Origin: an uncultured Verrucomicrobiota bacterium
Lineage (GTDB): Bacteria > Verrucomicrobiota > Verrucomicrobiia > Limisphaerales > CAZKNW01
Reading direction: 5' to 3'
Length of the DNA: 42,437 nucleotides
Assembly: GCA_964554035.1 (NCBI GenBank)
Contig: CAZKNW010000001.1
Location: forward strand, 1 to 42,437
Every line of letters starts with the position of its first letter. Positions within the stretch are counted from its first letter, which is position 1. The position numbers were made by a program, and so were the translations under genes. The notes beneath the pieces are model-generated. The model was given only the letters and a program-made list of their open reading frames with translations. It was not told where the DNA came from and did not search any database. Of the stretch, positions 144-28,546 are shown in pieces.

Positions 144-217
144 TGGTTGTCCGACATGGATTCGAACCATGACTAAAGGCGTCAAAGGCCTCTGTGCTAC
201 CATTACACCATCGGACA
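144..217 (-). tRNA. tRNA-Gln (anticodon UUG), CCA encoded
   Basis: The reverse complement folds as a 74-nt cloverleaf. Acceptor stem is TGTCCGA/TCGGACA with U1-A72, typical of bacterial tRNA-Gln. D stem is GTGT/GCAC. Anticodon stem is GAGGC/GCCTT with loop CTTTGAC (anticodon TTG). T arm is CATGG-TTCGAAT-CCATG, followed by discriminator A and CCA. Confidence 0.9.
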
Positions 218-2111: not shown

Positions 2112-2813
2112 ATGCCCATGGACCTTGAGGGAAGGCTCGAAAGGATTAATGCGAGGATTGAAGCGGCCTGCGACCGTTGTGGACGGTCCAGGGACGAAGT
2201 GACCCTGGTTGCCGTTTCCAAGACGCATGAAGCTTCCGCCATATCGGAGGCTGCCGACCTGGGGCTCACCGTCTTTGGCGAATCCAAGGTCCAGGAGCTC
2301 AAGGGGAAGATCGGACGCTGTCCCCAGCACCTGACCTGGCACCTGATCGGACATCTCCAATCGAACAAGGCACGGGATGCCGTCTTCCTTTTCAAGATGA
2401 TTCACAGCGTGGACAGCGTTTCGCTGGCGGTGGAACTCAACAAGCACGCAGAGAAACAGGCCCGGATGGTTCCGGTTCTCCTTCAGGTCAATGTTTCAGG
2501 CGAGGCCACCAAGTATGGGTTCCGCCCTGATGGATTTCAGGAGGCCTTCGACCAGATCGTGGAGCTGCCCCGGTTGGAGGTCCATGGCCTGATGACCATG
2601 GCGCCATGGACCCCTGAAGTGGAGAAGACCCGGCCCGCGTTTGCCAGGCTTCGGGAGATCCGTGATGAAATGGAAGAACACCTGGGGGCCCCGCTTCCCG
2701 AGCTCAGCATGGGAATGAGCAACGACTTCGAGATCGCCATCGAGGAAGGCGCCACCCTGGTGCGGGTTGGCAGCGATCTCTTTTGGAAACGCTCCTACGC
2801 AAAAAAGAAGTAG
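2112..2813 (+). CDS. yggS: YggS-family pyridoxal-phosphate homeostasis protein
   Basis: 233 aa with YggS hallmarks: VAVSKT (PLP lysine), HLIGHLQSNK, VNVSGEATKYGF, GLMTMAP and LSMGMSNDFEIAIEEGATLVRVGSDLF. Confidence 0.9.
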   Translation: MPMDLEGRLERINARIEAACDRCGRSRDEVTLVAVSKTHEASAISEAADLGLTVFGESKVQELKGKIGRCPQHLTWHLIGHLQSNKARDAVFLFKMIHSVDSVSLAVELNKHAEKQARMVPVLLQVNVSGEATKYGFRPDGFQEAFDQIVELPRLEVHGLMTMAPWTPEVEKTRPAFARLREIRDEMEEHLGAPLPELSMGMSNDFEIAIEEGATLVRVGSDLFWKRSYAKKK

Positions 2814-2895
2814 TCCGAATATTCAATCCCGAATTCTAATTGCAGAATTCTGAACAGACTCACGGCGAGTAGAGAAGCGTTCTAGGAAAAAAGGG

Positions 2896-3163
2896 TTCTC
2901 TTACTGAGCCACGGAGGAACACGGGGAGTTGAAATGCATGCATTTCAATGAAGGTCCTATCTCCCTGTCTCACCGAAGCCCATGCGAGGGCGGAAGAATC
3001 AAAGGGTAGGGCCCGTCGCTCCGCGCGGGCCGTTGTTGCGGACGGGGAGTCAGGATGTCCCTTTGCGATTGGATGCCATGCCCGGGCGCTCACGGAGTGA
3101 TCGCCCTACCTTGAGAGGTAAGATTCCAATCGGTGGCTTTTCTGAATCTGCGGGGAACCAATC
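2896..3163 (+). repeat. Structured intergenic repeat, copy A (H1 module lacking its right arm, complete R2 module, tail)
   Basis: Shares long near-identical blocks with 3209-3401, 7728-8049 and 22600-22966: gagccacggaggaacacggggagTTGAAATGCATGCATTTCAA, then gaagcccatgcga...aaagggtagggcccgtcgctccgcgcgggcc...cgggcgctcacggagtgatcgccctacc, then the tail gattccaatc...ggggaaccaatcc. Confidence 0.9.
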
Positions 3164-3208
3164 CCATTCGATCTCACGCCAAGACGCCGAGACGCAGAGG
3201 GGAGAGAA

Positions 3209-3401
3209 GTTTCTCTCACGGAGCCACGGAGGAACACGGGTGTTGAAATGCATGCATTTCAATAAATGGCCTCTCTCCGTGAATCACCGTGGCTCCGTGA
3301 GAGATATTCTTCCCTGTCTCACCGAAGCCCATGCGAAAGGGGAAGCCCCAAAGGGTAGGGCCCGTCGCTCCGCGCGGGCCGTTGTTGCGGACGGGGAGTC
3401 A
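3209..3401 (+). repeat. Structured intergenic repeat, copy B (complete H1 module, left half of R2 only)
   Basis: Directly follows copy A. It contains a perfect 18-bp inverted repeat, 3212-3229 tctctcacggagccacgg and 3287-3304 ccgtggctccgtgagaga. This encloses the 20-bp palindrome at 3243-3262. The R2 left arm (GTAG at 3355-3358) is present and the right arm is absent. Confidence 0.9.
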
Positions 3402-3437
3402 GAACGCCCCTCATCTGAAATGTGAGATTTGAAATCG

Positions 3438-4964
3438 CTACTCCGCCTTTTTCCTCGCCGCCACCAGGTCGGGATACTTTTCATCGGTATCGCCAATCCT
3501 CTTCTTCAGGTCATCCAGTTGCTTGAGGAGCTTCTTCTGGATCTTGGCGTATTTGGCTGAGCCGAAGACGTTGTTCATCTCATGGGGATCGTTCTGCAGG
3601 TCGTAGAGTTCGAAGTAGGGAGGTGTGGGATCCTTCTTGGCTCCAGGGGCATCCAGTCCGAGGCCATAAAAGAAGATGAGTTTGTGCGTCTTGGTCCGGA
3701 TGCCGTAGTGCGCGGGGTTGTCGTGGTGGGCCATGTGCATCCAGTAGCGGTAATAGGTTGCCTGTGGCCAGTCGGCCGGAGTGTTGCCCTTGAGGTTGGG
3801 CACGAAGCTGCGGCCCTGGAACTGGGAAGGAAAACTTGATCCAGCCACTCCGGCCAGGTCCAGCAGTGTGGGGGCGAAGTCGACGTTGTTGACGATGTCA
3901 TCGAGGACCTTCCCCTTCGGCAGCGAGGCCGGGTGGCGGATGATGAAGGGCATCCGCATGGATTCCTCATACATCCAACGCTTGTCGATGTAGTCGTGCT
4001 CTCCCAGCATGAACCCCTGGTCGGCCGTGTAGATGATGATGGTGTTCTCAAGCTGCCCGGTTTTCTCCAGATGTTCCAGGAGGCGACCTATGTTGTCATC
4101 GACACCCTTCACACAGCGGAGGAACTTCTTCAGGTAGCGCTGGTAGGCGGTGCGGGTGTAGGCCTCGTTGGACAGGGACTCATCCACGAACATGTGATGT
4201 CCCATGTTGCGACGGGTGTTGCGCTTGGAAACGGAGGTGCCGAAGCGGGGAAGGTTTTGTGGGCCGTGGTTGCCCCGCTTCCAGAGGCTTTCGGGTTCGG
4301 GGATGTCGACATCCTCGTAGAGGAAATCATAGCGCTCCGCGTTTTCAAAGTTGTCGTGGGGCGCCTTGAAGTGATGCATCAGGAAGAAGGGCTTGTCCGA
4401 TTTCCTCTGCTTAAGCCACCTCAGTGAGATGTCGGTGATGGCATCCGAGGAATGCGTGTTGTCATAGCCAGCGACCCGGATCGTGTTGTTCGGCCACTTT
4501 TCCTTTCCCCGGACACGAAAGATGGGGTTGAAGTAGGATCCCTGTCCCGGAAGCACCGTGTAGAAGTCAAAGGCGGCGGGTTCCTCCTTGAGGTGCCATT
4601 TGCCGACCATGGCGGTTTCGTAGCCAGCCTTCCTCATCTCAATGGCGACGGTCTGCCTCTCGGGTGGGATCTTTCCGTTGAGCGTGGTGACTCCGTTGGC
4701 GTGGCTGTACTGGCCCGTCATGATGCTGGCGCGACTGGGGGTGCAGATCGAGTTGGAGACAAAGCAGTTTGCGAGGCGGACGCCTTCCCTGGCCAGCCGG
4801 TCGATGTTGGGAGTGGGATTCAAAACCGCCAGCCTGCTGCCATAGGCGCCGATTCCATGGGCCGCATGGTCGTCGGACATGATGTAGAGGATGTTGGGCT
4901 TCCCGGCGGCGTGAACCGAGTTCACCAGCGTCAGGATTGCCGTTAAGAGAAGGCGTTGAATCAT
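3438..4964 (-). CDS. Secreted Cys-type sulfatase (paralog of 6028..7629)
   Basis: ORF trimmed to the ATG at 4962-4964 (MIQRLLLTAILTLVNSVHA signal peptide). It has the metal site SDDH and the formylglycine motif SICTPSRASIMTG. Strong block similarity to the 6028 gene (NPTPNID, YLK.FLRCVKGVD, DKRWMYEES, HYGIRT). Confidence 0.9.
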   Translation of the reverse strand: MIQRLLLTAILTLVNSVHAAGKPNILYIMSDDHAAHGIGAYGSRLAVLNPTPNIDRLAREGVRLANCFVSNSICTPSRASIMTGQYSHANGVTTLNGKIPPERQTVAIEMRKAGYETAMVGKWHLKEEPAAFDFYTVLPGQGSYFNPIFRVRGKEKWPNNTIRVAGYDNTHSSDAITDISLRWLKQRKSDKPFFLMHHFKAPHDNFENAERYDFLYEDVDIPEPESLWKRGNHGPQNLPRFGTSVSKRNTRRNMGHHMFVDESLSNEAYTRTAYQRYLKKFLRCVKGVDDNIGRLLEHLEKTGQLENTIIIYTADQGFMLGEHDYIDKRWMYEESMRMPFIIRHPASLPKGKVLDDIVNNVDFAPTLLDLAGVAGSSFPSQFQGRSFVPNLKGNTPADWPQATYYRYWMHMAHHDNPAHYGIRTKTHKLIFFYGLGLDAPGAKKDPTPPYFELYDLQNDPHEMNNVFGSAKYAKIQKKLLKQLDDLKKRIGDTDEKYPDLVAARKKAE

Positions 4965-5088
4965 TCCGAATTCTGCCGTTCTCGCGCTCGATGGGTCTAG
5001 TAAAGAACAGTCATGCCATTTTGAAATCGTGACATGGAGTGTTAAAAAAGGGTTCGACATCCCATGGCCTTTTATTGAAAAAAAGCAC

Positions 5089-5853
5089 ATGAAGACACCC
5101 CGAGAGGCAACCGTCATCCAGCAGGAGTTTTTCCGGCGCATGGATGGCATCCAGCAGGTGAAACTGCTGTTTGATCATTTGCCAGGGCTTCATTTTTTCA
5201 TCAAGGACGAGAACAGCCGCATGATCAGCGTCAGTCGCGAGATCCTGGAGCGCCTTGGAGTGGACGAGGAGTATGAGATCGTCGGGAAGACCGACTATGA
5301 TTTCTTCCCTCAGGAAATCGCTGACAATTTCGTTCGGGATGATGTCGGCGTGTTAAAAACCGGTCAGCCTCTCATTAACCGGGTGGAGATCTGGTACAAC
5401 GAGCAACGGGTCCTCGACTGGTTTGTCACCACCAAGCTCCCTATCCGGGATCCCGATGGAAACATCATTGGGATCATGGGAACCACGCAGACTTATGAGG
5501 GCAAGCGCAGGGCGCTCATGCCATTTTCCAGTGTGGGCAAGGCGGTGGAACTGATCCGCACGGACCTTCACCGCAACATCTCTGCCCAGGAGATGGCGCG
5601 GGTGGCCGGGTTGTCGGTTCGGCAGCTGTCGCGCAAGTTTCGTGAGGTCTTTGGGATGTCGCCCCATGAGTTTGCGCTGCGGACCCGGATTCAGGGTGCC
5701 TGCGACGAACTGGCCCGCACCGAGAAACCCATCATCCAGATCGCACTGGACTTCGGCTTCTGCGATCAGAGCGCCTTCACCGTCCAGTTCCGCAAGTTCA
5801 CCGGCGTGACGCCCCGGCTTTTCCGGGAGCGTTACCGTCCGCATCGGGTCTAA
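5089..5853 (+). CDS. PAS-domain AraC/XylS-family transcriptional regulator
   Basis: The C-terminal AraC helix-turn-helix pair is visible (ISAQEMARVAGLSVRQLSRKFREVFGMSPHEF ... IALDFGFCDQSAFTVQFRKFTGVTPRLFR). The N-terminal part is PAS-like (FFIKDENSRMISVS ... GKTDYDFFP). Start placed at the ATG at 5089; a GTG at 5029 is the alternative. Confidence 0.85.
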   Translation: MKTPREATVIQQEFFRRMDGIQQVKLLFDHLPGLHFFIKDENSRMISVSREILERLGVDEEYEIVGKTDYDFFPQEIADNFVRDDVGVLKTGQPLINRVEIWYNEQRVLDWFVTTKLPIRDPDGNIIGIMGTTQTYEGKRRALMPFSSVGKAVELIRTDLHRNISAQEMARVAGLSVRQLSRKFREVFGMSPHEFALRTRIQGACDELARTEKPIIQIALDFGFCDQSAFTVQFRKFTGVTPRLFRERYRPHRV

Positions 5854-5882: not shown

Positions 5883-6027
5883 GTGGGAAGAAGGAGGCTG
5901 CAGATCTTCTTCTCATGGTCCTTCATGCCCTTCATGGTTCCAAATGAATGCGGCCGGAGCTGATGGCGTCTTGTTCTGGACTCCCGGGATTGGATTGATA
6001 CCTTCTCCGTCCACCTCAATTGGATCT

Positions 6028-7629
6028 ATGAAACTGCGTATTGTTACCATTCTGACCGTCTTGCTGTTCTGGTCGGCCTCGCTCTGGGCCAAGGATCAGC
6101 GTCCGAACATCCTCTTCATCTTCACCGACGACCATGCACCTCATGCCATTGGTGCCTATGACGGCTGGTTGAAATCAGTCAACCCGACCCCGAACATCGA
6201 CAAGCTGGCCGGGCAGGGAATGCTTTTCCGGAAGAGCTTCTGTTCCAACTCCATCTGTGGTCCCAGCCGTGCCGTCATCCAGACCGGCAAGCATAGCCAC
6301 AAGAACGGGTTCATGAACAACGGCAACAGCTTTGACTGGAACCAGCAGACCTTTCCCAAGCTCCTCCAGAAGGCCGGATACCAGACCGCCATCTACGGAA
6401 AGAGCCACCTCAAGGGACAGCCGCAGGGTTATGATGACTGGGCCGTCCTCCCCGGGCAGGGGCTCTACTACAACCCCGACATGATCTTCGCGGACGGAAA
6501 GAAGAAGATCGATGGCTACTGTACCGACGTGGTGACTGATCTGGCGGTGGATTACCTGAAGAACAAGCGACAGGCCGACAAGCCCTTCATGGTGATGGTC
6601 CAGCACAAGGCACCTCACCGCAACTGGATGCCCGCTCTGCGTCACCTGCACCTCTATGACGACATCGAGATCCCTGAGCCTGCGACCCTCTTCGACAAGT
6701 GGGAGGACAATGCGCCGCCTGCACGCCATCAGGAACTGGAGATCGATCGTCACATGGATCTCAACTACGACCTTTTCGTCGATCTGACCCCGGAGTTCAA
6801 CCAGCCTGCTTCCCAGAAGCGCCAGGATCGTTCTGCCTGGAACAACATGAAGCGCATGACGCCTGAGCAGCTCAAGGCCTGGCGTGATGCCTACGGTCCC
6901 AAGGATGAGGCCTTCCACAAGGCCAACCTTTCCGGCAAGGACCTCGTGCGTTGGAAGTATCAGCGCTATGCCAAGAACTACCTTCGCTGTGTCAAGGGCG
7001 TGGACGAGAGCGTGGGTCGTCTTCGTGACACGCTCAAGGAGCTGGGCTTGGATGAGAACACCATCGTGATCTACAGCTCCGACCAAGGCTTCTACATCGG
7101 AGACCATGGCTGGTATGACAAGCGCTGGATGTATGAGGAATCCCTGATGATGCCCTTCATCGCCTACTGGCCCGGTGTGACCAAGGCGGGTTCCAAGGAC
7201 AACCACTTGATCCAGAACCTGGATTATGCCGAGACCTTCCTCGACATCGCTGGGGCTCCTATTCCTGGCGACATGCAGGGACGCTCGCTGGTGCCGCTGT
7301 TGAAGGGCAAGAATCCCAAGGACTGGCGCAAGAGCATCTACTATCACTACTACGAGTATCCCAGCGTTCACATGGTGCCCCGTCACTACGGCATCCGGAC
7401 CGAGCGTTACAAGCTGATGCACTTCTATCAGTTTGGAAACGAGTGGGAACTCTACGATCTGAAGAACGATCCGGACGAGCTGACCAACATCTATGGGCAG
7501 CCCAAGCACGCCAAGCTGACCCAACGTCTCAAGAACCAGCTCAAGAAGCTGCAGAAGGATTACGAGGACGACAGCGACATCTCCGAGAAGCCGGAGAGCT
7601 GGCAGAAGGAAGTCCGTCCGCTTGAGTAG
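6028..7629 (+). CDS. Secreted Cys-type sulfatase (paralog of 3438..4964)
   Basis: ORF trimmed to the ATG at 6028 (MKLRIVTILTVLLFWSASLWA signal peptide). It has FTDDH and the motif SICGPSRAVIQTG, and ends at a TAG stop. Confidence 0.9.
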   Translation: MKLRIVTILTVLLFWSASLWAKDQRPNILFIFTDDHAPHAIGAYDGWLKSVNPTPNIDKLAGQGMLFRKSFCSNSICGPSRAVIQTGKHSHKNGFMNNGNSFDWNQQTFPKLLQKAGYQTAIYGKSHLKGQPQGYDDWAVLPGQGLYYNPDMIFADGKKKIDGYCTDVVTDLAVDYLKNKRQADKPFMVMVQHKAPHRNWMPALRHLHLYDDIEIPEPATLFDKWEDNAPPARHQELEIDRHMDLNYDLFVDLTPEFNQPASQKRQDRSAWNNMKRMTPEQLKAWRDAYGPKDEAFHKANLSGKDLVRWKYQRYAKNYLRCVKGVDESVGRLRDTLKELGLDENTIVIYSSDQGFYIGDHGWYDKRWMYEESLMMPFIAYWPGVTKAGSKDNHLIQNLDYAETFLDIAGAPIPGDMQGRSLVPLLKGKNPKDWRKSIYYHYYEYPSVHMVPRHYGIRTERYKLMHFYQFGNEWELYDLKNDPDELTNIYGQPKHAKLTQRLKNQLKKLQKDYEDDSDISEKPESWQKEVRPLE

Positions 7630-7661
7630 GCAGGATCCTAGATCCCAGTGATTTCAGAAAA

Positions 7662-7692
7662 GGCCGCTCCCGAAAGGGCGCGGCCTTTTTAT
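7662..7692 (+). terminator. Rho-independent terminator after the sulfatase 6028..7629
   Basis: GGCCGCTCCC-GAAA-GGGCGCGGCC forms a 10-bp stem with one mismatch and a GAAA tetraloop. It is followed directly by TTTTTATT, 33 nt after the stop codon. Confidence 0.75.
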
Positions 7693-7727
7693 TGCCCCCA
7701 CGCGGAGGCGCAGTGGCGCGGAGGAAT

Positions 7728-8049
7728 AAGACAATACCGTTTCTCTCACGGAGCCACGGAGGAACACGGGGAGTTGAAATGCATGCATTTCGACAAATGT
7801 CCTCTCTCCGTGAATCCCCGTGCCTCAGTGAGAGATATTCCTTCTCCTTTAGGATTCGGAAAATAGCTCATGCGAAAATGGAAGCCCCAAAGGGTAGGGC
7901 CCGTCGCTCCGCGCGGGCTTTTGTTGCGGACGGGGATTCAGGATGTTCCTTTGCGATTGGATGCCAAGCTCGGGCGCTCACGGAGTGATCGCCCTACCTT
8001 TGTGAGGCATGCCTCGATCCTCGGATTCCAATCTGCGGGGAACCAATCC
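7728..8049 (+). repeat. Structured intergenic repeat, copy C (H1, R2, short tail)
   Basis: H1 carries the palindrome variant TTGAAATGCATGCATTTCGA at 7774-7793. R2 is bounded by GTAG 7894-7897 and CTAC 7994-7997. The tail lacks the 17-nt segment ggtggcttttctgaatc seen in copies A and D. Confidence 0.9.
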
Positions 8050-8054
8050 TTTCC

Positions 8055-8750
8055 CTACGGAATTCGAATTACAAAATCATCGTAGTGGACCTCGCGGTCC
8101 ACGGTGGTGATGTTCATGTTGGACTTGGTGGTGTGGGCGATGCCTTCGGACTTGAGGGTGCCCACCAGCTTGTCGTCGATCCATATCTTGAGGACGTCGC
8201 CTTCGATGCGGATGCGCAGGCGGTGCCAGGCCTTGGGATCGATGTCGATCTTGTTGTTGACGGACTTGGTTTTGAGCATGTCCTGGGTGGCCTTGTCGAG
8301 TTTCTCTCCCGCCTTCCTCCTGTCGCGAATCTCCTTCACGAAGATGCCGGTCTTTCCGTCATAAAGAGTGATCGCGTCCTGGCCCACGCCCACGTGGCAG
8401 ATGTGCCCGGCATGGGAGCCCTTGTAGCCGAGGTCGCGGAACATGACACTGAAGCGCTTGGAACCCTCGAACTTGAAGGAGATCTCGACCTCCATGTCGC
8501 TCAGGGGAGGGAGTTCGATGGAGTTGACCGACGGGTGATCGGCGGTCTTGGGGGTGATGCCGACCATGACGCCGTCCTTGACGATGGTTTCGCTCTTCCA
8601 TGACCCCCACTGCTTCTTGAGTGCGCTACCCGAGAAGTCATCCTCGAAGAAGACCTTCTTGAAGGGACCTGCCTGAAGCTGGTTGGAGAGGAGGGTGCTG
8701 AGGGAGAGAACTCCTGCTAGGAGTGTCCTGTGGATGCAGTTTCTGTTCAT
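8055..8750 (-). CDS. Secreted LamG/concanavalin-like (DUF1080-type) protein
   Basis: ORF trimmed to the ATG at 8748-8750 (MNRNCIHRTLLAGVLSLSTLLSNQLQA signal peptide). The pattern FEDDF ... W ... VKDG ... EISFKF ... WHRLRIRIEGDVLKIWIDDKLV is typical of the LamG jelly-roll family. It starts 14 nt after the upstream sulfatase stop. Confidence 0.6.
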   Translation of the reverse strand: MNRNCIHRTLLAGVLSLSTLLSNQLQAGPFKKVFFEDDFSGSALKKQWGSWKSETIVKDGVMVGITPKTADHPSVNSIELPPLSDMEVEISFKFEGSKRFSVMFRDLGYKGSHAGHICHVGVGQDAITLYDGKTGIFVKEIRDRRKAGEKLDKATQDMLKTKSVNNKIDIDPKAWHRLRIRIEGDVLKIWIDDKLVGTLKSEGIAHTTKSNMNITTVDREVHYDDFVIRIP

Positions 8751-8764
8751 GGTTGAATGAGAAA

Positions 8765-10057
8765 TCACGGACGATCGATGGATGCCTCCCATTCATCGAG
8801 AAGGGTGGTGAGCCGGGCAACCCTGTCTGGATGATGAAAGCAGAGGTTGGTGGACTCCGAGACGTCCGAGCTGATGTGAAACAGGTGGGTCGTGCCGTTC
8901 TCCATCTGCAGGAGCTTCCAGTCGCCCTGCCGGACAGCCCTTCCCGGGTTGATGACCTTTCGCTTTGGGCCTGATTTCCTGCGCCAGAACATCGTGCGCC
9001 TTGCAGCGAGATCCGGGGATTCCAATAGCTTGAAGACGTCCCCTCCATCCCCTGCAGCGACGTCCTGTCCGATCAGGTTCCGAAACGTGGCGCTCCAGTC
9101 CATGGTGTTGACCGGTGCCGAGGAAATACTGCCTTCCTTGAACCTGCCGGGCCAACGGGCGATGCAGGGGACGCGGATGCCGCCTTCCCAGAGGGTGGCC
9201 TTGTCCCCGCCCATGGGACGGTTGTCGGAATAGGTGTGGCCTCCGTTGTCGGAACAGAAGACGACCAGGGTGTTTCCCCGAAGGTCGAGGTCATCGATGA
9301 GTTTAAGGACCCTGCCGATTCCTGCGTCCATGGACTCCACCATCGCTCGATAGGTCTCGCGATCTCCGATCTGCCAGGACTTGTGCTTGGGGCGGATGTC
9401 CTTCCCCTGGTCGCCGGGACCCTGCCAGGGGAAGTGGGGAGCGGCGTGGGACAGGTAGAGGAAGAAGGGATTCTTCTGATTGTTGCGGATGAACCCCAGT
9501 GCATCCTCCGTGATCAGGTCGGTGCTGTAACCCCTTCGCTTCACAGGTTCCGTGTTTAGCCAGAGGTCATGGACTCCAATGCGGTCCATGTGCTGGAAGT
9601 AATGATGGTTGCCGCCAAGCAGCCCGAAAAAGTGATTGAATCCCTGGTGGTTGGGCTGACGTTCCGTGTCGTATCCGAGGTGCCACTTGCCCGAAAGTCC
9701 GGTGGTGTAACCGGCGGCCTGGAAACTGTGGGCAAGGGTGCGCCCTTCTGGATCGATCCCGCGTCCCATTTCCTGGTAGTAGAGCGCATTGTCCATCCCG
9801 ATCCGTTGCGGATAGCGTCCGGTCAGGAAACCGGCGCGGGTGGGTGAACAGGTCGGGCCGGTGGCGTAGTAATCGGTGAAGCGTATGCCTTCCTTCGCAA
9901 GTTGATCAAGGTGGGGTGTCCTGATGTCAGGGCTTCCGTAGCACCCCAGGTCTCCGTAGCCGAGGTCATCGGCCATGATGAAGACCACGTTGGGTGGGGA
10001 AGCGGCCTGGAGACCGAGGCAGGTGATAATGAGCAGGGCAGTGAGACGAAATGCCAT
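8765..10057 (-). CDS. Secreted Cys-type arylsulfatase
   Basis: Signal peptide MAFRLTALLIITCLGLQA, then ADDLGYGDLGCYG and the motif TCSPTRAGFLTG. 430 aa. Confidence 0.9.
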   Translation of the reverse strand: MAFRLTALLIITCLGLQAASPPNVVFIMADDLGYGDLGCYGSPDIRTPHLDQLAKEGIRFTDYYATGPTCSPTRAGFLTGRYPQRIGMDNALYYQEMGRGIDPEGRTLAHSFQAAGYTTGLSGKWHLGYDTERQPNHQGFNHFFGLLGGNHHYFQHMDRIGVHDLWLNTEPVKRRGYSTDLITEDALGFIRNNQKNPFFLYLSHAAPHFPWQGPGDQGKDIRPKHKSWQIGDRETYRAMVESMDAGIGRVLKLIDDLDLRGNTLVVFCSDNGGHTYSDNRPMGGDKATLWEGGIRVPCIARWPGRFKEGSISSAPVNTMDWSATFRNLIGQDVAAGDGGDVFKLLESPDLAARRTMFWRRKSGPKRKVINPGRAVRQGDWKLLQMENGTTHLFHISSDVSESTNLCFHHPDRVARLTTLLDEWEASIDRP

Positions 10058-20727: not shown

Positions 20728-22560
20728 GTGATTTCCATAAGCGCCTTCATTTCGAGGAGTCCTGTATGTGCTTTGCTGGGGCTTTTCGTCCTTTCATCCT
20801 TCTCGAAAGCCGTTGCGACCCTTCCCTCGAAGCCAAACGTCATTGTGGTCTACACGGATGATCATGGTTGGCCCGATGTGGGCAGCGTGGGTGTGTATCC
20901 GGACCTGAAAACCCCCAACATCGATCGCCTCGCAAAGGGAGGGCTGAGGGCCGTCAGCGGATACAGCACGGCCCCGCAGTGTGTGCCGTCGCGGGCGGGA
21001 CTCCTTTCTGGGCGTTCCCAGAACCGCTTCGGTGTTGAGTCCAATGGTGAATCGCTGGAGGGTTTCGACCGGCAGTTCACGATTGCCGAGCGGTTGAAGA
21101 AGGTGGGCTATGCGACGGGGCAGATCGGGAAGTGGCATCTGGGGCCGGTGAATGCCATCACCTCGCATGGGTTCGATGATGTATACGCCAAGAATGCGAA
21201 CCGTCCTGGATGGGCCAACTACACGCTCGATGGCAAGACGGTTCCCGGAGGACAGGAAAACTCCAGGCTTTATCACCTGGATGCCTGCAGTGAGGCGGCA
21301 AGGGCCTTTATTGAACGCCATGAAAAGGAACCCTTCTTCCTGTATCTCGCCTACCGTGCCCCTCATGTTCCACTCGATGCGCCCGCGAAATACCTGAATC
21401 GGTTTCCGGGTGAGATGCCCGAGCGAAGACGGCAGGCGCTGGCCATGATATCAGCCATGGATGACGGGCTGGGACTTATCCATCAAACGCTTCAGGAAAA
21501 GGGGCTGCTGGAAAAGACCCTGATCTTCGTCATCGCCGACAACGGGGCGCCTCTCAAGATCCACAAGTTGGATGCCCCGGGCGGTGGCCCTGGCTGGGAT
21601 GGGTCGCTCAATGAACCCATGAACGGGGAAAAGGGCATGTTGAGCGAAGGCGGCATGCGTGTGCCCTTCATTGTCAGTTGGCCCGGCATCATCCCTGGGG
21701 GGCAGGTGTATGAACATCCGATCTGGACCCTGGATGTGGCAGCCACGGCAGTCACCCTGGCGGGGCTCCCCATGGATGGTTCGCTTGATGGAGTGAACCT
21801 GATCCCCTACCTGAGCGGAGAGAAGAAGGAGGCTCCTCATGGGCAGCTTTTTTGGCGCTGGATTTCCCAGTCGGCTGTTCGCGAAGGGAAGTGGAAGTTT
21901 CTGAAGGGAGGAGACCGGGAGTATCTCTTCAACCTGGACCAGGACAAGGAGGAGAAGCACGACCTCAAGAAGGAACATCCCCAGGTGGCGGCCCGTCTCA
22001 AGGCATCGCTGTCCAAGTGGGCAGGCGAACTGGACCCGCCCGGGCTGGTCACGAAGCCGATGTCCCAGACATGGGAGGATTATTTTGACCACTACCTCGA
22101 TGGAAAACCTCCGGCTCCCCTTCGTTCCAAGTTCGTTCCCAAGGAGAATGGGCAGACGACTGATCTGCAGGGATGGGTGGTGCGCAATGGCGTTGCCAAG
22201 ACCGGTAAAGATGGATTGAAGGTGGCTCCTGAAGTGAAGAAGGGGCGTCGCCTTTACATGGCCAGGGCGAAGATCAAGCATGCCTCGCCGGTGAAGGTGC
22301 GCATCAGCCTTCAGGCTGCAAAGGGAGACAAGGTGGGAGTCTCGTGGCGTGAGGAAGGTCAGAAGGATTTTGTAGCAGGGCAGACGGTTTCTTCTGCAAT
22401 TCAGGATGGCACGGGCCATCAGGAGGCCTTGGTTTCCATTCCCAACAAGGCCGAAGTCATCCACATCAGGGTTCACCTGCCGGATGGAGAGACGGTCCTG
22501 GAAAGCATCGAAGTGGTTGGCAGGGGTGGTTCCAGGGACGTTTGGAGATTCAGGGAGTGA
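20728..22560 (+). CDS. Secreted Cys-type sulfatase with a C-terminal extension of about 150 aa
   Basis: GTG start at 20728 (no in-frame ATG upstream of the signal peptide). It has YTDDHGWPD and the motif QCVPSRAGLLSG. The C-terminal part, from about LRSKFVPKENG to the end, lies outside the sulfatase fold. Confidence 0.85.
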   Translation: MISISAFISRSPVCALLGLFVLSSFSKAVATLPSKPNVIVVYTDDHGWPDVGSVGVYPDLKTPNIDRLAKGGLRAVSGYSTAPQCVPSRAGLLSGRSQNRFGVESNGESLEGFDRQFTIAERLKKVGYATGQIGKWHLGPVNAITSHGFDDVYAKNANRPGWANYTLDGKTVPGGQENSRLYHLDACSEAARAFIERHEKEPFFLYLAYRAPHVPLDAPAKYLNRFPGEMPERRRQALAMISAMDDGLGLIHQTLQEKGLLEKTLIFVIADNGAPLKIHKLDAPGGGPGWDGSLNEPMNGEKGMLSEGGMRVPFIVSWPGIIPGGQVYEHPIWTLDVAATAVTLAGLPMDGSLDGVNLIPYLSGEKKEAPHGQLFWRWISQSAVREGKWKFLKGGDREYLFNLDQDKEEKHDLKKEHPQVAARLKASLSKWAGELDPPGLVTKPMSQTWEDYFDHYLDGKPPAPLRSKFVPKENGQTTDLQGWVVRNGVAKTGKDGLKVAPEVKKGRRLYMARAKIKHASPVKVRISLQAAKGDKVGVSWREEGQKDFVAGQTVSSAIQDGTGHQEALVSIPNKAEVIHIRVHLPDGETVLESIEVVGRGGSRDVWRFRE

Positions 22561-22599
22561 GCGAATGGGAGTCAGGCTCACGCTGAGACGCTGAGGAAC

Positions 22600-22966
22600 A
22601 AGACAATGCCGTTTCTCTCGCTGAGCCACGGAGGAACACGGGGAGTTGAAATGCATGCATTTCAACAAATGTCCTTTCTCCGTGAATCACCGTGCCTCTG
22701 TGAGAGATATTCTTCCTCTTTCAGAATCTGGAAGATAGCTCATGACGAGACGCCGCTTGTCCTGCCGAAGCCCATGCGAAGGGGGAAGACCCAAAGGTAG
22801 GGCCCGTCGCTCCGCGCGGGCCTTTGCTGCGAACGGGGATTCAGACGCCTTCATGCGATTGGATACCAGGCCCGGGCGCTCACGGAGTGATCGCCCTACC
22901 TTTGTGAGGCATGCCTCGATCCTCGGATTCCAATCTGTGGCTTTTCTGAATCCTCGGGAAATCAAT
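22600..22966 (+). repeat. Structured intergenic repeat, copy D (H1, junction carrying both linker variants, R2, long tail)
   Basis: Palindrome at 22646-22665. R2 is bounded by GTAG 22797-22800 and CTAC 22896-22899. The linker carries both the agctcatg junction of copy C and the ccgaagcccatgcgaa junction of copies A and B. Confidence 0.9.
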
Positions 22967-22977
22967 TCAATGAGAAA

Positions 22978-23658
22978 TCAACGATTTGCTGCCCAGACCT
23001 CGAAGTTTCGGATGGCTCCTCCTGCCTTGCCGGGATTGAGACCGATCTTGTTCTTGGTGGTGGCAAGGGCCGGATGGCGACCCTCCACAGTGACATCGCC
23101 GACCGTGACACGTGCCAGGTCATCGACGAGCTCCAGTCGCATATGGTGCCACTTTCCCGGCTTGAGGTTCACGTCGACAGGACCAAAGCGCTTCTCCTCC
23201 TTCACCTTCTTGTCCTTGTCCTTGGGGTTGTGGAGCAGGGTAAGTCCAAGGGGCTGGAACGTGGTTGAGAAATTGGCCCATGCCGCGATTGTATGGCCGG
23301 TATAGTCAGGATGATCCAGGAAGATCCGGAAATGCCGGTCAGGACCTTCCTTTTCAGGAAGCTTGAACTCACACTCGATGATGACGTTGTCGATGGGAGC
23401 CAGATAGGTCAGAACAGGTCCGTGACCGTCACTTGGGACGTTGACCGCCTTGAGTCCGCCCTCCTTGAGTACGGACCAGTCACCAAAGCTGAGGCGCTGG
23501 TCCCATCCTTCAGCAACATTCACCTTCTTCTTTTTCAGGGCTGGAGCTTTCCTGAAGTCATCCTTGAAGAGGAGGCGGCCCTTTTCTGCAGATTGGCTGG
23601 TAAAGCAGAAAAGGAGTGAAAGCAGGAGTGCTGCAAGAATCCTTGAGGTTGTTTTCAT
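22978..23658 (-). CDS. Secreted LamG/concanavalin-like (DUF1080-type) protein
   Basis: Signal peptide MKTTSRILAALLLSLLFCFTSQSA. The pattern FKDDF ... W ... ECEFKL ... WHHMRLELVDDLARVTVGD matches the LamG type. It starts 3 nt after the upstream sulfatase stop. Confidence 0.6.
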   Translation of the reverse strand: MKTTSRILAALLLSLLFCFTSQSAEKGRLLFKDDFRKAPALKKKKVNVAEGWDQRLSFGDWSVLKEGGLKAVNVPSDGHGPVLTYLAPIDNVIIECEFKLPEKEGPDRHFRIFLDHPDYTGHTIAAWANFSTTFQPLGLTLLHNPKDKDKKVKEEKRFGPVDVNLKPGKWHHMRLELVDDLARVTVGDVTVEGRHPALATTKNKIGLNPGKAGGAIRNFEVWAANR

Positions 23659-26032: not shown

Positions 26033-27151
26033 ATGATAAAAAATCCACGCCCCCGTTTCTCATTCGTTTTCCTGTTACTTGGCCTGTTGTCCGTTGGAGC
26101 CAGTTCTGGCGCGGACAAGGCCGTTACCACGGGAGACTTTGACAGGGTGGTGTTGGCTGAGCTCGAACGCCAGGAGACCGTTGGTGTGGCGGTTGGCGTC
26201 ATCATCGACAACCGGATTGTTTATTTGAACGGCTACGGCTGGGCGGACCGTGAAAGGGAGATTCCGGTCGACACCCAGACGCTCTTTCGCTGGGCGTCCA
26301 TCTCCAAGCCCTTGACCGCCCTCGCGGCCATGCAGTTGAGTGAACAGGGCAGGCTCGACATCGATGCGGACGTGAGGACCTACCTGCCGGAGTTTCCCGA
26401 CAAGGAGGCGAAGATCACCAGCCGTCAGTTGATGGGGCATCTGGGTGGGATTGTTCACTATTCGAATGGGCCTGTGGTCAGGACCAAACGGGACTATGAT
26501 AACGAGCATCCCTTCAAGGATGTGGTGCTGGCCCTGGATACCTTCAAGGAATCGCCGCTGGTGTATCCACCGGGTGAGAAATATTCCTACACCACGCATG
26601 GATTCATCCTGTTGAGTGCCGTCGTGCAAAGGGCGGGAGGTGAGCCTTTCGATCTCCAGGTCCAGAAGCGGATTGCGGATCCCCTGGGCATGGACACCCT
26701 GCAACCCGACTACCAGTGGAAGGACATTCCCAACCGGGCCAGGGGATACATGCGTGTCGCCGGAGTGGTGGTACCCTCCACCAACACCGATGTCAGCTGG
26801 AAGCTGGGTGGCGGTGGGTATCTGTCCAATGTCGGGGACCTGGCCCGACTGGCGGAAGGACTGCTGCAGGGAAAACTGATCTCAGAGGAGACCCGCAAGC
26901 TCATGTGGACGCGACAGAAAACGAACTCAGGCAAACGGATTGGTTATGGCATGGGCTTCAATGTCTCCGGTGAGGGAAGTGACCTGAAGGTTTCCCACGG
27001 CGGATCACAGGAAAAGGTGAAGACCCGGATGGAGATCCATCCGGGCAAGGGAACGGGAGTCGTGGTCATGTGCAATGCCCGGCACGCGAATCCCACGAAG
27101 TTTTCCGAGTTGATCTTTGAACTGATCGAACCCGGTAAGGAAGAAAAGTAG
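26033..27151 (+). CDS. Secreted serine hydrolase, beta-lactamase/class C-like family
   Basis: Signal peptide present. It has the S-x-x-K motif (SISKPLT), the Y-x-N motif (HYSNGP) and an HGG box in place of KTG. Confidence 0.8.
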   Translation: MIKNPRPRFSFVFLLLGLLSVGASSGADKAVTTGDFDRVVLAELERQETVGVAVGVIIDNRIVYLNGYGWADREREIPVDTQTLFRWASISKPLTALAAMQLSEQGRLDIDADVRTYLPEFPDKEAKITSRQLMGHLGGIVHYSNGPVVRTKRDYDNEHPFKDVVLALDTFKESPLVYPPGEKYSYTTHGFILLSAVVQRAGGEPFDLQVQKRIADPLGMDTLQPDYQWKDIPNRARGYMRVAGVVVPSTNTDVSWKLGGGGYLSNVGDLARLAEGLLQGKLISEETRKLMWTRQKTNSGKRIGYGMGFNVSGEGSDLKVSHGGSQEKVKTRMEIHPGKGTGVVVMCNARHANPTKFSELIFELIEPGKEEK

Positions 27152-27186
27152 AATCGGATGTCATTCCGATCACTTCAGATTGTGTC

Positions 27187-27208
27187 GCCCCTCCGGGGCT
27201 TTAGGTTT
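27187..27208 (+). terminator. Possible weak intrinsic terminator after the serine hydrolase gene
   Basis: GCCCC-TCC-GGGGC (5-bp stem) is followed by TTTAGGTTT. The stem is short and the T tract is interrupted. Confidence 0.3.
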
Positions 27209-27277
27209 GAGGGTGGGCTTTGATTCCGGTGGCTGACGCGCACCGGCTACCCTCTGTCGGCCCTCCGGGCCTCTGAA

Positions 27278-28546
27278 TTAGCGTCCGGCGTGTTTGATGA
27301 CTGCCTTGAGGAAGGCGTCCTTGATGTGGGCCGGTGCCGCATGTGCCATGGCGGGTTCGTTCAATACGGTCTTGGGTCCCTTGAGCTGATTGTAGGCGGC
27401 ATAACATGAGGTTGGAGGACAGACCGGATCGATGAATCCCACGCTCATGATGGCTTCTGCCTTGCAGCGATTGGCGAAGTTGACGGCGTCGATGTAGCGG
27501 GTTGCCTCGAGGACCTTTGGGTCGGGTTTCCCGTCCACCATGGGAACGATCTTGGGCCAGCCACTGATCCGGTCGGCTGCGTTGCCTGAGTGATCGCAAC
27601 CGGCGGGAACTCCCGAACCGATGAAGGTGACCCGCGGATCAATTCCCCCTGCCACCAGCGCCTGCAGCCCACCCTGGCTGTGCCCGATCACGGCCACGGT
27701 CCTGCCATCCCATTCGGGCAGGGAGGTCAGGTAGTCGATGGCTCGGACCAGCCTGAGGAACATGCCGTTGAAGTAAATTGTTTCGCGATCTTCGCGGCCA
27801 TCATGCCGGTAGGTCTTCAATTCTCCCTTGCTCAGGTCCTGGTAGAACTTGCCCGGCTTTCCGTTGGGGATGCCATGGGCGTTGATGTCCATGGAGATCA
27901 TGCCGTTCCTGGCGCCCTGGACCGCATTGCCCAGGCTGGAGCTGCGGACGCCCGCACCGTGGACCCAGAGAATGATCGGATGCCCCTTGGCCTTGGCGTT
28001 CTTCGGCAGGGCGAGGTAGCCGGAAACGGGTTTGCCAAGACAGGTGATCTGCGTGTCGAAACAATCGGCATCCTTGCTGGTCACCGCCGTCCGTGTGGCC
28101 TTCATCGGAATTCCGGCCAGCCTTTGCTTCTGCTTCGCCCAGAATTCATCGAAGTCGTCGGGCACGGGCAGGCTTGCCTTGATCTGAAGAGGCGAAATTG
28201 CGGCGGCGCCAACCGCCGTCAACGTCTTGCCTTGGGCGGGCTTGTAGGATGCGACGCAGCGCAGGAACCCGGGCTTGCCCATGGAACCCTCAATCGTGGC
28301 GGTGCCATCCTTGAGATGAACCTTTCCCTTCTTGAGTTCGTTGAACCCGTCTTCGGAAAGGACAAAGTTGACCGATCCGCCTGGATCCTCAGAGTCGGAC
28401 AACCGGACATGGAACACGACGGTGTCTCCGGTCTTGTAGGTGGCATCCTCCTGGTTCGTCTGGACCTTCAGGGACGGGGCGGATAGGAGGGGTGAGGCAC
28501 TGAGAATAAGCAGCAGTGCCGCAAGGTAGGATAGGTGCTTCTTCAT
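27278..28546 (-). CDS. Secreted acetyl-xylan-esterase-like (AXE1/CE7-like) alpha/beta hydrolase
   Basis: Signal peptide, an N-terminal beta-rich domain, and the nucleophile elbow VIGHSQGG (GxSQGG). Other CE7 signatures are not clearly seen. Confidence 0.7.
   Translation of the reverse strand: MKKHLSYLAALLLILSASPLLSAPSLKVQTNQEDATYKTGDTVVFHVRLSDSEDPGGSVNFVLSEDGFNELKKGKVHLKDGTATIEGSMGKPGFLRCVASYKPAQGKTLTAVGAAAISPLQIKASLPVPDDFDEFWAKQKQRLAGIPMKATRTAVTSKDADCFDTQITCLGKPVSGYLALPKNAKAKGHPIILWVHGAGVRSSSLGNAVQGARNGMISMDINAHGIPNGKPGKFYQDLSKGELKTYRHDGREDRETIYFNGMFLRLVRAIDYLTSLPEWDGRTVAVIGHSQGGLQALVAGGIDPRVTFIGSGVPAGCDHSGNAADRISGWPKIVPMVDGKPDPKVLEATRYIDAVNFANRCKAEAIMSVGFIDPVCPPTSCYAAYNQLKGPKTVLNEPAMAHAAPAHIKDAFLKAVIKHAGR

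Follow-up and report, generated by a model that had tools for sequence, protein, structure and literature searches.

Intergenic repeats of an uncultured Verrucomicrobiota bacterium contain a GTAG-tagged REP doublet and probably form BIME-like mosaics

Contig CAZKNW010000001.1 of the uncultured Verrucomicrobiota assembly GCA_964554035.1 carries a family of intergenic repeats, which we analyzed in a stretch of 42,437 nucleotides (nt) with 58% G+C, here called the window. There are four repeat copies, all on the + strand (A, 2896-3163; B, 3209-3401; C, ~7709-8049; D, ~22581-22966), and they occupy three convergent gene gaps. Copies A and B lie between a gene for a yggS-like pyridoxal phosphate (PLP) enzyme, 2112-2813(+), and a sulfatase gene, 3438-5150(-). 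Copy C lies between a sulfatase gene, 5944-7629(+), and a 3-keto-disaccharide-hydrolase/LamG-like gene, 8055-8792(-), and copy D lies between genes of the same two kinds, 20728-22560(+) and 22978-23658(-); all of these assignments come from Pfam. The elements end 36 nt (A/B locus), 5 nt (copy C) and 11 nt (copy D) from the stop codon of the minus-strand gene, and copy C comes after a canonical intrinsic terminator (Table 1).

Read on the + strand, the unit consists of a leader, a long palindrome (H1), a linker, a doublet of short palindromes (R2) and a tail, and a whole multi-module unit in the window measures ~330-390 nt. Copy A has no H1 right arm, and copy B lacks the second half of R2 (REP-b, described below) and the tail. 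A sequence-only reading of this DNA had already delimited four same-orientation copies, which alignment confirms at or near the same positions, and its descriptions of the convergent placement, of tails ending 5-36 nt from a minus-strand stop codon, of the terminator before copy C and of the truncations in A and B all held. Its module order (H1, linker, R2, tail) was right as far as it went; it had overlooked the leader, a conserved stretch of ~35-40 nt that sits 5' of H1 in copies B, C and D and puts the start of the unit ahead of the coordinates given there. In sequence, the leader resembles the H1 left arm in degenerate form. Copies C and D are 80.8% identical across 364 nt, with individual blocks at 88-95%, and copy B carries a 1-nt indel within the best-conserved block. 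A sensitive blastn search (word size 7) of the window revealed no fifth copy. The motif GGTAGGGC occurs 8 times in the window where 0.66 occurrences would be expected, and 7 of these are inside elements, and CTCACGGAG occurs 6 times against 0.61 expected, in every case inside an element.

The gene map of the window (28 genes, 27 gaps, 7 of them convergent) comes from a codon-bias gene caller, which is heuristic and not validated; longest open reading frame (ORF) calling proved unreliable for this DNA. On this map, all three element-bearing gaps are convergent (P ~0.012, by arithmetic from the gene map), and the four convergent gaps without an element are merely 1-74 nt long. Because the four same-strand copies amount to only three independent loci, their shared orientation is not significant (P ~0.25).

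R2 is a head-to-head heterodimer of GTAG-tagged repetitive extragenic palindromic (REP) sequences, resembling a REP doublet forming a hairpin (REPIN) or a bacterial interspersed mosaic element (BIME). The R2 unit is 100-107 nt long (85 nt in one variant), starts with GGTAGGGC and ends with GCCCTACC, and its flanks are unrelated between places. It comprises two different 27-nt imperfect palindromes, REP-a (GGTAGGGCCCGTCGCTCCGCGCGGGCC, i.e., GGTAG-GGCCCGTCGCTCCGCGCGGGCC) and REP-b (GGGCGCTCACGGAGTGATCGCCCTACC; reverse complement, GGTAG-GGCGATCACTCCGTGAGCGCC), with their GGTAG tags pointing outward and a variable spacer of ~50 nt between them. The two stems are G+C rich and unlike each other. Folded singly as DNA, the REPs form hairpins of -9.2 and -8.0 kcal/mol, with a 3-nt loop, one stem bulge or mismatch, and an unpaired GGTAG. 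All 7 REPs of the window start with GGTAG, and 25 of 25 aligned R2 units have this tag at both ends. Across this alignment of 25 distinct units, variation is concentrated in the ~50-nt center, and the two 27-nt ends hardly change. The RNAalifold consensus of R2 is one long REP-a/REP-b hairpin of 26 pairs, including GU pairs and gaps. The compensatory changes that the sequence-only reading had proposed to look for are absent: in the 25-unit alignment the paired columns hardly vary, and with ends this constant no covariation is seen. A center free to vary between conserved termini is characteristic of transposase substrates rather than of structured RNAs.

R2 is dispersed well beyond the window. 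A scan with the exact REP-a 25-mer yielded 33 metagenome contigs, the majority of them from Ga01815xx samples (contigs are designated here by L numbers). The population of the window is present in the marsh samples ERZ27313062/074/169/171 and Ga0181593. Clustering by flanks places REP-a/R2 at 25 distinct genomic places, namely, three in the window, a composite locus (L024) that adjoins a rhodanese-type gene, and 21 others. The pattern scan of the metagenomes was not exhaustive, since it missed a Joint Genome Institute (JGI) contig (L081; Ga0181593_10029964) that has copy D and the exact REP-a 25-mer, and the counts of places are therefore lower bounds. Exact-protein look-up found locus D to be identical in three additional contigs, with the R2 sequence of copy D unchanged in L079-L081, and the gene adjoining locus C gave no record in such a look-up. 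Four contigs (L001, L002, L015 and L016) are >99.8% identical to the window, and L003 (96.8% identical) is the yggS locus of the window in a variant strain and was counted together with it. The tetranucleotide composition of the other Ga01815xx contigs, L033 excepted, correlates with that of the window at 0.8-0.97, compared with 0.4-0.65 for other Verrucomicrobiota metagenome-assembled genomes (MAGs), and the Ga01815xx contigs are therefore likely to derive from the genome of the window or from close relatives of it. L001 has a single-base change in REP-a (GGGCTCG).

By heuristic gene calls, the R2 copies at the 25 places are all intergenic, with ~7 in convergent, ~11 in co-directional and 1 in divergent gaps, and the co-directional copies are evenly split between both orientations. 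The statement that the repeats occur only in convergent gaps and in a single orientation is accurate within the window and does not extend to the 25 places; this wider spectrum makes it a property of a small sample. R2 or the REP-a arm occurs without H1 at 20 of the 21 further places, and among the places examined H1 is present only at the window's own loci, in the strain variant L003 and at L024. Tandem arrays of linker, R2 and tail without H1 occur in L010 and L027. No direct repeats flank R2.

A second type of composite is found in contigs of the same metagenomes (L009:1740-2030 and L009:3080-3400; also L012, L021, L026 and L029). There, R2, with a spacer sequence of its own, is nested in an outer palindrome, in the layout CCGCCTGAACAGGCTGTGTGAAAAC[R2]TGATATGGGTGATG...T-run...GTTTTCACACAGCCTG..GGCGG.

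The REP-b type also occurs in other bacteria. In the GTDB genomes, a degenerate form of the REP-b pattern matched 29 times at 27 loci, and 25 of these matches were in Verrucomicrobiota MAGs (Udaeobacter, Opitutaceae, Opitutus and uncultured Verrucomicrobiae), including 14 in the single MAG ESF1.bin.58 (JBEHYR01); outside this phylum there were a few in Acidobacteriota and one in Pirellulaceae. In most cases the motif is the right-hand REP of a GGTAGGGC...CCCTACC doublet whose left-hand REP is a different one, and an exact 26-nt REP is common to the window and distant Verrucomicrobiota MAGs. In each of two contigs, L048 and L055, an ORF of the 154-aa type with an HUH motif (..PDHLHAI..) has an exact REP-b core at a distance of 120-220 nt. 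These ORFs score 80.7 and 83 bits on the NCBIfam model NF047646, "REP-associated tyrosine transposase" (REP_Tyr_transpos). The encoded REP-associated tyrosine transposase (RAYT)-like protein has 1529 homologues at E <= 1e-10, many of which are named RayT by JGI. At two further homologue sites, represented by three contigs (L064-L066), REPs that carry the GGTAGGGC tag and belong to two stem types stand on both sides of the gene, and the stem sequences vary between variants with complementarity kept. RAYT genes in MAGs and contigs of Verrucomicrobiae have REPs of the REP-b type on their flanks. According to PMC8266576, the TnpA-REP transposase of E. coli needs a bulged imperfect palindrome preceded by a conserved motif, an anatomy that REP-a and REP-b share.

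Several observations on these contigs stand beside this result. At least seven contigs of MAG ESF1.bin.58 (L037, L038, L042, L044, L045, L054 and L056) have complete head-to-head REP doublets inside outer inverted repeats, CTAGAGGCTGTCATGAACTTT...AAAGTTCATGACAGCCTCTAG. REP-b-like hairpins with an xCAC-GGA-GTGx tip and a CTACC tag are present in Pirellulaceae (L051:3085-3150), Acidobacteriota (L040 and L061) and Bryobacteraceae (L050), and the one in L051 adjoins a second GTAG-tagged palindrome, GTAGCCTGCACACTCCGTGTGCAGGC. The RAYT genes L048:1749-2213(-) and L055:5760-6224(-) are 86% identical and differ in the motif ..EEKTS[H/Y]ILMNPV.., which has His in L048 and Tyr in L055. This site may be the catalytic tyrosine motif, in which case the L048 RAYT is possibly inactive.

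H1 is a palindrome of ~95 nt with arms of 28-32 nt around a perfect 22-nt central palindrome, GTTGAAATGCATGCATTTCAAC. As DNA, H1 of copies B, C and D folds at -33.4, -27.6 and -25.9 kcal/mol (z = -8.5, -6.3 and -5.8 against shuffled sequences), and the partial H1 of copy A folds at -12.8 kcal/mol (z = -2.7). Read from the sequence, each arm has three heptamers resembling CACGGAG, at a spacing of 9-10 nt. Variation among the copies is almost absent from the left arm and the center, and the right arm has uncompensated mismatches in C and D. No compensatory changes were found in H1 either, where paired columns likewise hardly vary, and no conserved ORF spans it. Among IMG/VR viral contigs, the central palindrome has 0 matches and a left-arm 17-mer has only 12 chance matches in coding sequence. 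The copies appear to differ by deletions that arose between short direct repeats; the clearest is the loss of 37 nt from the right arm in copy A, between TCTCC and TCTTCC; L003 retains the full H1 of this copy (L003:1848-1975, corresponding to window 2882-2975). In the window, H1 lies 45-90 nt upstream of R2 and is a separate module from it. The composite is not one indivisible element, as R2 without H1 and the H1-less arrays of linker, R2 and tail indicate. The sequence-only reading had derived H1 and R2 from one hairpin unit on the strength of a single shared 9-mer, and such a common origin was not demonstrated.

R2 has the features given for GTAG-tagged REPs by Di Nocera, De Gregorio & Rocco 2013 (PMC3733652), with whose families REP-a and REP-b were compared by description rather than by consensus sequence. 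These features are an imperfect palindrome of 27 nt, rich in G+C, whose GTAG tail is unpaired; two REP types with tags outward and a spacer within 20-100 nt; and an extragenic location, mostly in convergent and unidirectional gaps, together with other palindromic repeats and a link to RAYTs. The same paper describes, for GTAG-tagged REPs, head-to-head dimers, heterodimers, spacers of 20-100 nt and nesting in longer palindromes; it reports a bias of REPs in general to convergent and unidirectional gaps, and it names Opitutus terrae, a member of the Verrucomicrobia, as rich in GTAG repeats. R2 differs in that the spacer is ~50 nt, compared with a reported 1-2 nt in the dimers of O. terrae, and in that the doublet is embedded in a multi-module unit. 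The sequence-only reading could match the repeat to no named family and had itself held that a match to a described element would count against its proposal; R2 fits the GTAG-tagged REP superfamily as portrayed in PMC3733652, and the claim of novelty is thereby removed. Since GTAG REPs were already reported in Verrucomicrobia (PMC3733652), the repeat joins a known kind: it is an addition to a well-known class of element and not a new kind. The defining sequence features of a GTAG-tagged REP, a head-to-head dimer and a BIME-type mosaic that can be tested here (palindrome, tag, inverted pair, sharp bounds, linkers and arrays) are all present, and the copy number seen is 7 REPs in the 42 kb of the window and 25 places in compositionally matching contigs.

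Other known systems resemble the repeats in part. The mosaic is like the E. coli BIMEs (PMC2817692) in having two REP types that alternate in orientation and conserved non-REP linkers and in occurring singly or in tandem at gene 3' ends; its own counterparts are REP-a and REP-b, the conserved linker, tail and leader, and the tandem arrays of A+B, L010 and L027. It is unlike them in that it has no sequence similarity to the Y and Z REPs and that its linkers are much longer, including the ~95-nt palindrome H1. In GTAG-15 of Anabaena variabilis and CGTC-1 of Halothiobacillus neapolitanus, as outlined in PMC3733652, REP doublets are likewise accompanied by a longer palindromic repeat. The nesting habit of those families is seen in the second composite type (L009, L012 and others) and in MAG ESF1.bin.58, whereas in the window H1 lies beside R2 and not around it. 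Like miniature inverted-repeat transposable elements (MITEs), the repeats are small, intergenic and multicopy, with inverted-repeat ends; unlike MITEs, they show no target-site duplication, no parent insertion sequence (IS) was found, and their ends are GTAG-tagged hairpins typical of Y1/HUH substrates. The earlier suggestion of a REP/BIME- or MITE-like mobile element thus stands for R2 in its REP/BIME part. The REPINs of Pseudomonas fluorescens (Bertels and Rainey 2011, cited in PMC3733652) reportedly consist of two inverted REPs and a spacer, forming a replicating unit of ~100 nt that is capable of forming a hairpin and that is linked to a single-copy RAYT. R2 shares with REPINs the inverted pair with a spacer and the length of ~100 nt, and it differs in pairing REPs with different stems, REPINs usually being near-homodimers.

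We consider it probable, at roughly 0.77, that the repeats are BIME-like mosaics assembled around the REP doublet, i.e., palindromic DNA of the kind that RAYT transposases mobilize. The anatomy of R2, its dispersal and the association of the same REP type with RAYT genes in related bacteria are observed, and the remaining steps are suggested by analogy with known REP systems. A REP-associated tyrosine (HUH/Y1) transposase, with its gene at another place in the genome, would recognize the folded single-stranded REP with its GTAG motif and would cut and rejoin it in trans, so that the RAYT of the source genome would be what mobilizes R2. The doublet would spread as a non-autonomous unit without target-site duplication. 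Copies would survive where they are least harmful, mainly downstream of gene 3' ends, which would account for the placement in convergent gaps. Leader, H1, linker and tail appear to be accessory repeat modules that travel with the doublet or were joined to it; a tandem duplication appears to have produced the A+B array, and slippage deletions between short direct repeats seem to have generated the truncated and variant copies. Effects on transcripts, such as a 3' hairpin that blocks exonucleases or a weak bidirectional terminator, would be secondary.

A number of results weigh against this reading. The whole R2 fold is barely more stable than shuffled sequences (z = -0.6 to -2.4), with separate small hairpins competing, and the invariance of REP-a is partly an artefact of ascertainment, the metagenome loci having been retrieved by the exact REP-a 25-mer. 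This 25-mer had 0 matches in the GTDB representative genomes, among which the source genome is not included. Searches with tblastn and three RAYT sequences (one of them from E. coli, which serves as a lead only) found no RAYT in the window or in the 36 metagenome loci of the same population (L001-L036), the only matches being in L048 and L055; the scores of the RAYT-like ORFs in those two contigs are just above the NCBIfam cut-off of 80, and these ORFs have no Pfam match. H1 has no GTAG tag, was never found away from R2 and falls outside what the REP/RAYT model explains. Mobility of R2 is something that we infer, and exact-protein look-ups for empty sites or insertion polymorphism showed none.

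The repeats might instead be a cis-acting RNA or transcription signal, in which case they would be a hairpin block in the 3' untranslated region (3'-UTR) or a bidirectional terminator or insulator that is selected at convergent polysaccharide-utilization genes, and their repetition would reflect this function. The position of all three window loci and of the L024 composite, 5-36 nt from a minus-strand stop codon, would suit such a role, as would the folding of the whole element as RNA, which is better than that of shuffles on both strands (z = -3.8 and -4.5); PMC3733652 also reports roles of REPs in mRNA stabilization and termination. We nevertheless regard it as unlikely. R2 and H1 show no compensatory changes, and the H1 arms of C and D accumulate mismatches that are not compensated. 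No Rfam family matches at the gathering score, and the sub-threshold matches of H1 are generic miRNA-precursor hairpins. The element contains no T-tract terminator, copy C comes after a normal one, truncated copies persist, and R2 occupies co-directional gaps in either orientation as well as one divergent gap. Another proposal is that H1 is an undescribed non-autonomous element, or a predicted protein-binding platform, paired with the REP doublet, with the whole unit being a selected module that marks the ends of convergent polysaccharide-utilization genes; this seems to us distinctly unlikely, and H1 is the only part of the repeat that might open a new class of system.

A MITE origin, for the whole composite or at any rate for H1, is very unlikely; the element would then be a deletion derivative of a DDE-type IS with terminal inverted repeats, moved by the transposase of that IS, and R2 would have been only a passenger or the target. 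H1 has the shape for it, being a near-perfect palindrome of ~95 nt with arms of 28-32 nt; the H1-less arrays of linker, R2 and tail fit H1 as an insertion, and in copy D leader-like direct repeats lie on either side of H1. These flanking repeats are long and imperfect, however, and define no clean target-site duplication; 378 kb of related sequence contain neither a transposase nor an IS whose ends match, and H1 is never found alone. The IMG/VR scans reported above, with no match to the central palindrome and only chance coding matches to the arm 17-mer, also speak against a MITE, and R2 has sharply bounded copies of its own. That the repeats are left over from a segmental duplication of sulfatase/LamG-like cassettes, or are a degraded coding gene, is effectively refuted. 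Both C and D do lie between sulfatase and 3-keto-disaccharide-hydrolase-like genes, but the proteins flanking C and D are only 26-27% identical, compared with 81-95% for the repeats, and the left neighbors differ elsewhere (yggS at A/B and the rhodanese-type gene at L024). Remnants of a coding gene, which the earlier reading had named as a finding that would undo its proposal, were not found: ORFs that cross the repeats have no Pfam match, a six-frame peptide query of 5.8 billion proteins gave no match at E <= 0.001, and the indel of copy B falls in the most conserved block.

Three other kinds of element were considered and rejected. Integron attC sites are contradicted by the absence of GTTRRRY ends and of cassettes, CRISPR arrays by the irregular spacing, and retron or omega-RNA remnants by the absence of reverse transcriptase (RT), TnpB or IscB genes nearby and of an Rfam match.

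TABLE 1 Positions of the repeat modules and of the neighboring terminator in the window
Feature	Position	Strand	Basis and remarks
Copy A, H1 left arm and central palindrome	2896..2960	+	Alignments; right arm gone through 37-nt deletion
Copy A, linker (..TGTCTCACCGAAGCCCATGCGAGGGCGGAAGAATCAAAG)	2961..3004	+	Repeat family D6, alignment
Copy A, R2	3005..3110	+	REP-a 3005-3031, spacer, REP-b 3084-3110
Copy A, tail (to ~3163), and copy B, leader (~3164-3208)	3111..3208	+	Families D5 and D12, alignment; spacer between units of the A+B tandem array
Copy B, complete H1 palindrome	3212..3304	+	Arms 3212-3239 and 3277-3304; inverted repeat I15, 86% complementary
Copy B, linker, REP-a (3354-3380) and first part of spacer	3305..3403	+	Alignments
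Intrinsic terminator of upstream sulfatase gene	7661..7690	+	Sequence and terminator scan; outside the repeat, its 5' neighbor
Copy C, leader	7709..7741	+	Family D4, alignments; apparently a degenerate H1 left-arm copy
Copy C, H1 palindrome	7742..7835	+	DNA fold, alignments
Copy C, linker	7836..7892	+	Alignments
Copy C, R2	7893..7998	+	REP-a 7893-7919, REP-b 7972-7998
Copy C, tail	7999..8049	+	Family D5
Copy D, leader	22581..22613	+	Family D4, alignment
Copy D, H1 palindrome	22614..22707	+	DNA fold
Copy D, long linker, including a second leader-like stretch, CTCATGACGAGACGCCGCT	22708..22795	+	Alignment
Copy D, R2	22796..22900	+	REP-a 22796-22822, REP-b 22874-22900
Copy D, tail	22901..22966	+	Families D5 and D12

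The biology of REPs, REPINs and BIMEs has been worked out almost entirely in Proteobacteria, and this locus provides a clean example of the verrucomicrobial type, which is useful for the study of RAYT-REP co-evolution outside the Proteobacteria. The repeats are also relevant to annotation, as they break metagenome assemblies and can seed spurious ORFs, and to strain tracking, with indel polymorphisms between strains already visible. The contigs of the yggS locus (L001-L003) end inside repeats, e.g., 319 and 564 nt past the yggS stop codon, and many other loci are alike, which indicates that the elements fragment short-read assemblies.

Some further features of the window were noted. The sulfatase genes 3438-5150(-) and 5944-7629(+) are paralogues in divergent orientation that share stretches of 69-109 nt at 75-78% complementarity (I1, I3 and I4). 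The short repeats D7-D9, I2, I8 and I9 suggest that there are several further sulfatase-like paralogues across the window, which fits a polysaccharide-utilization region. A tRNA gene at 147-217(-) is the sole Rfam match at the gathering score in the window. The interval 26211-27278 (~1 kb) is gene-free in the codon-bias map, yet an ORF of 372 aa, 26033-27151(+), spans it.

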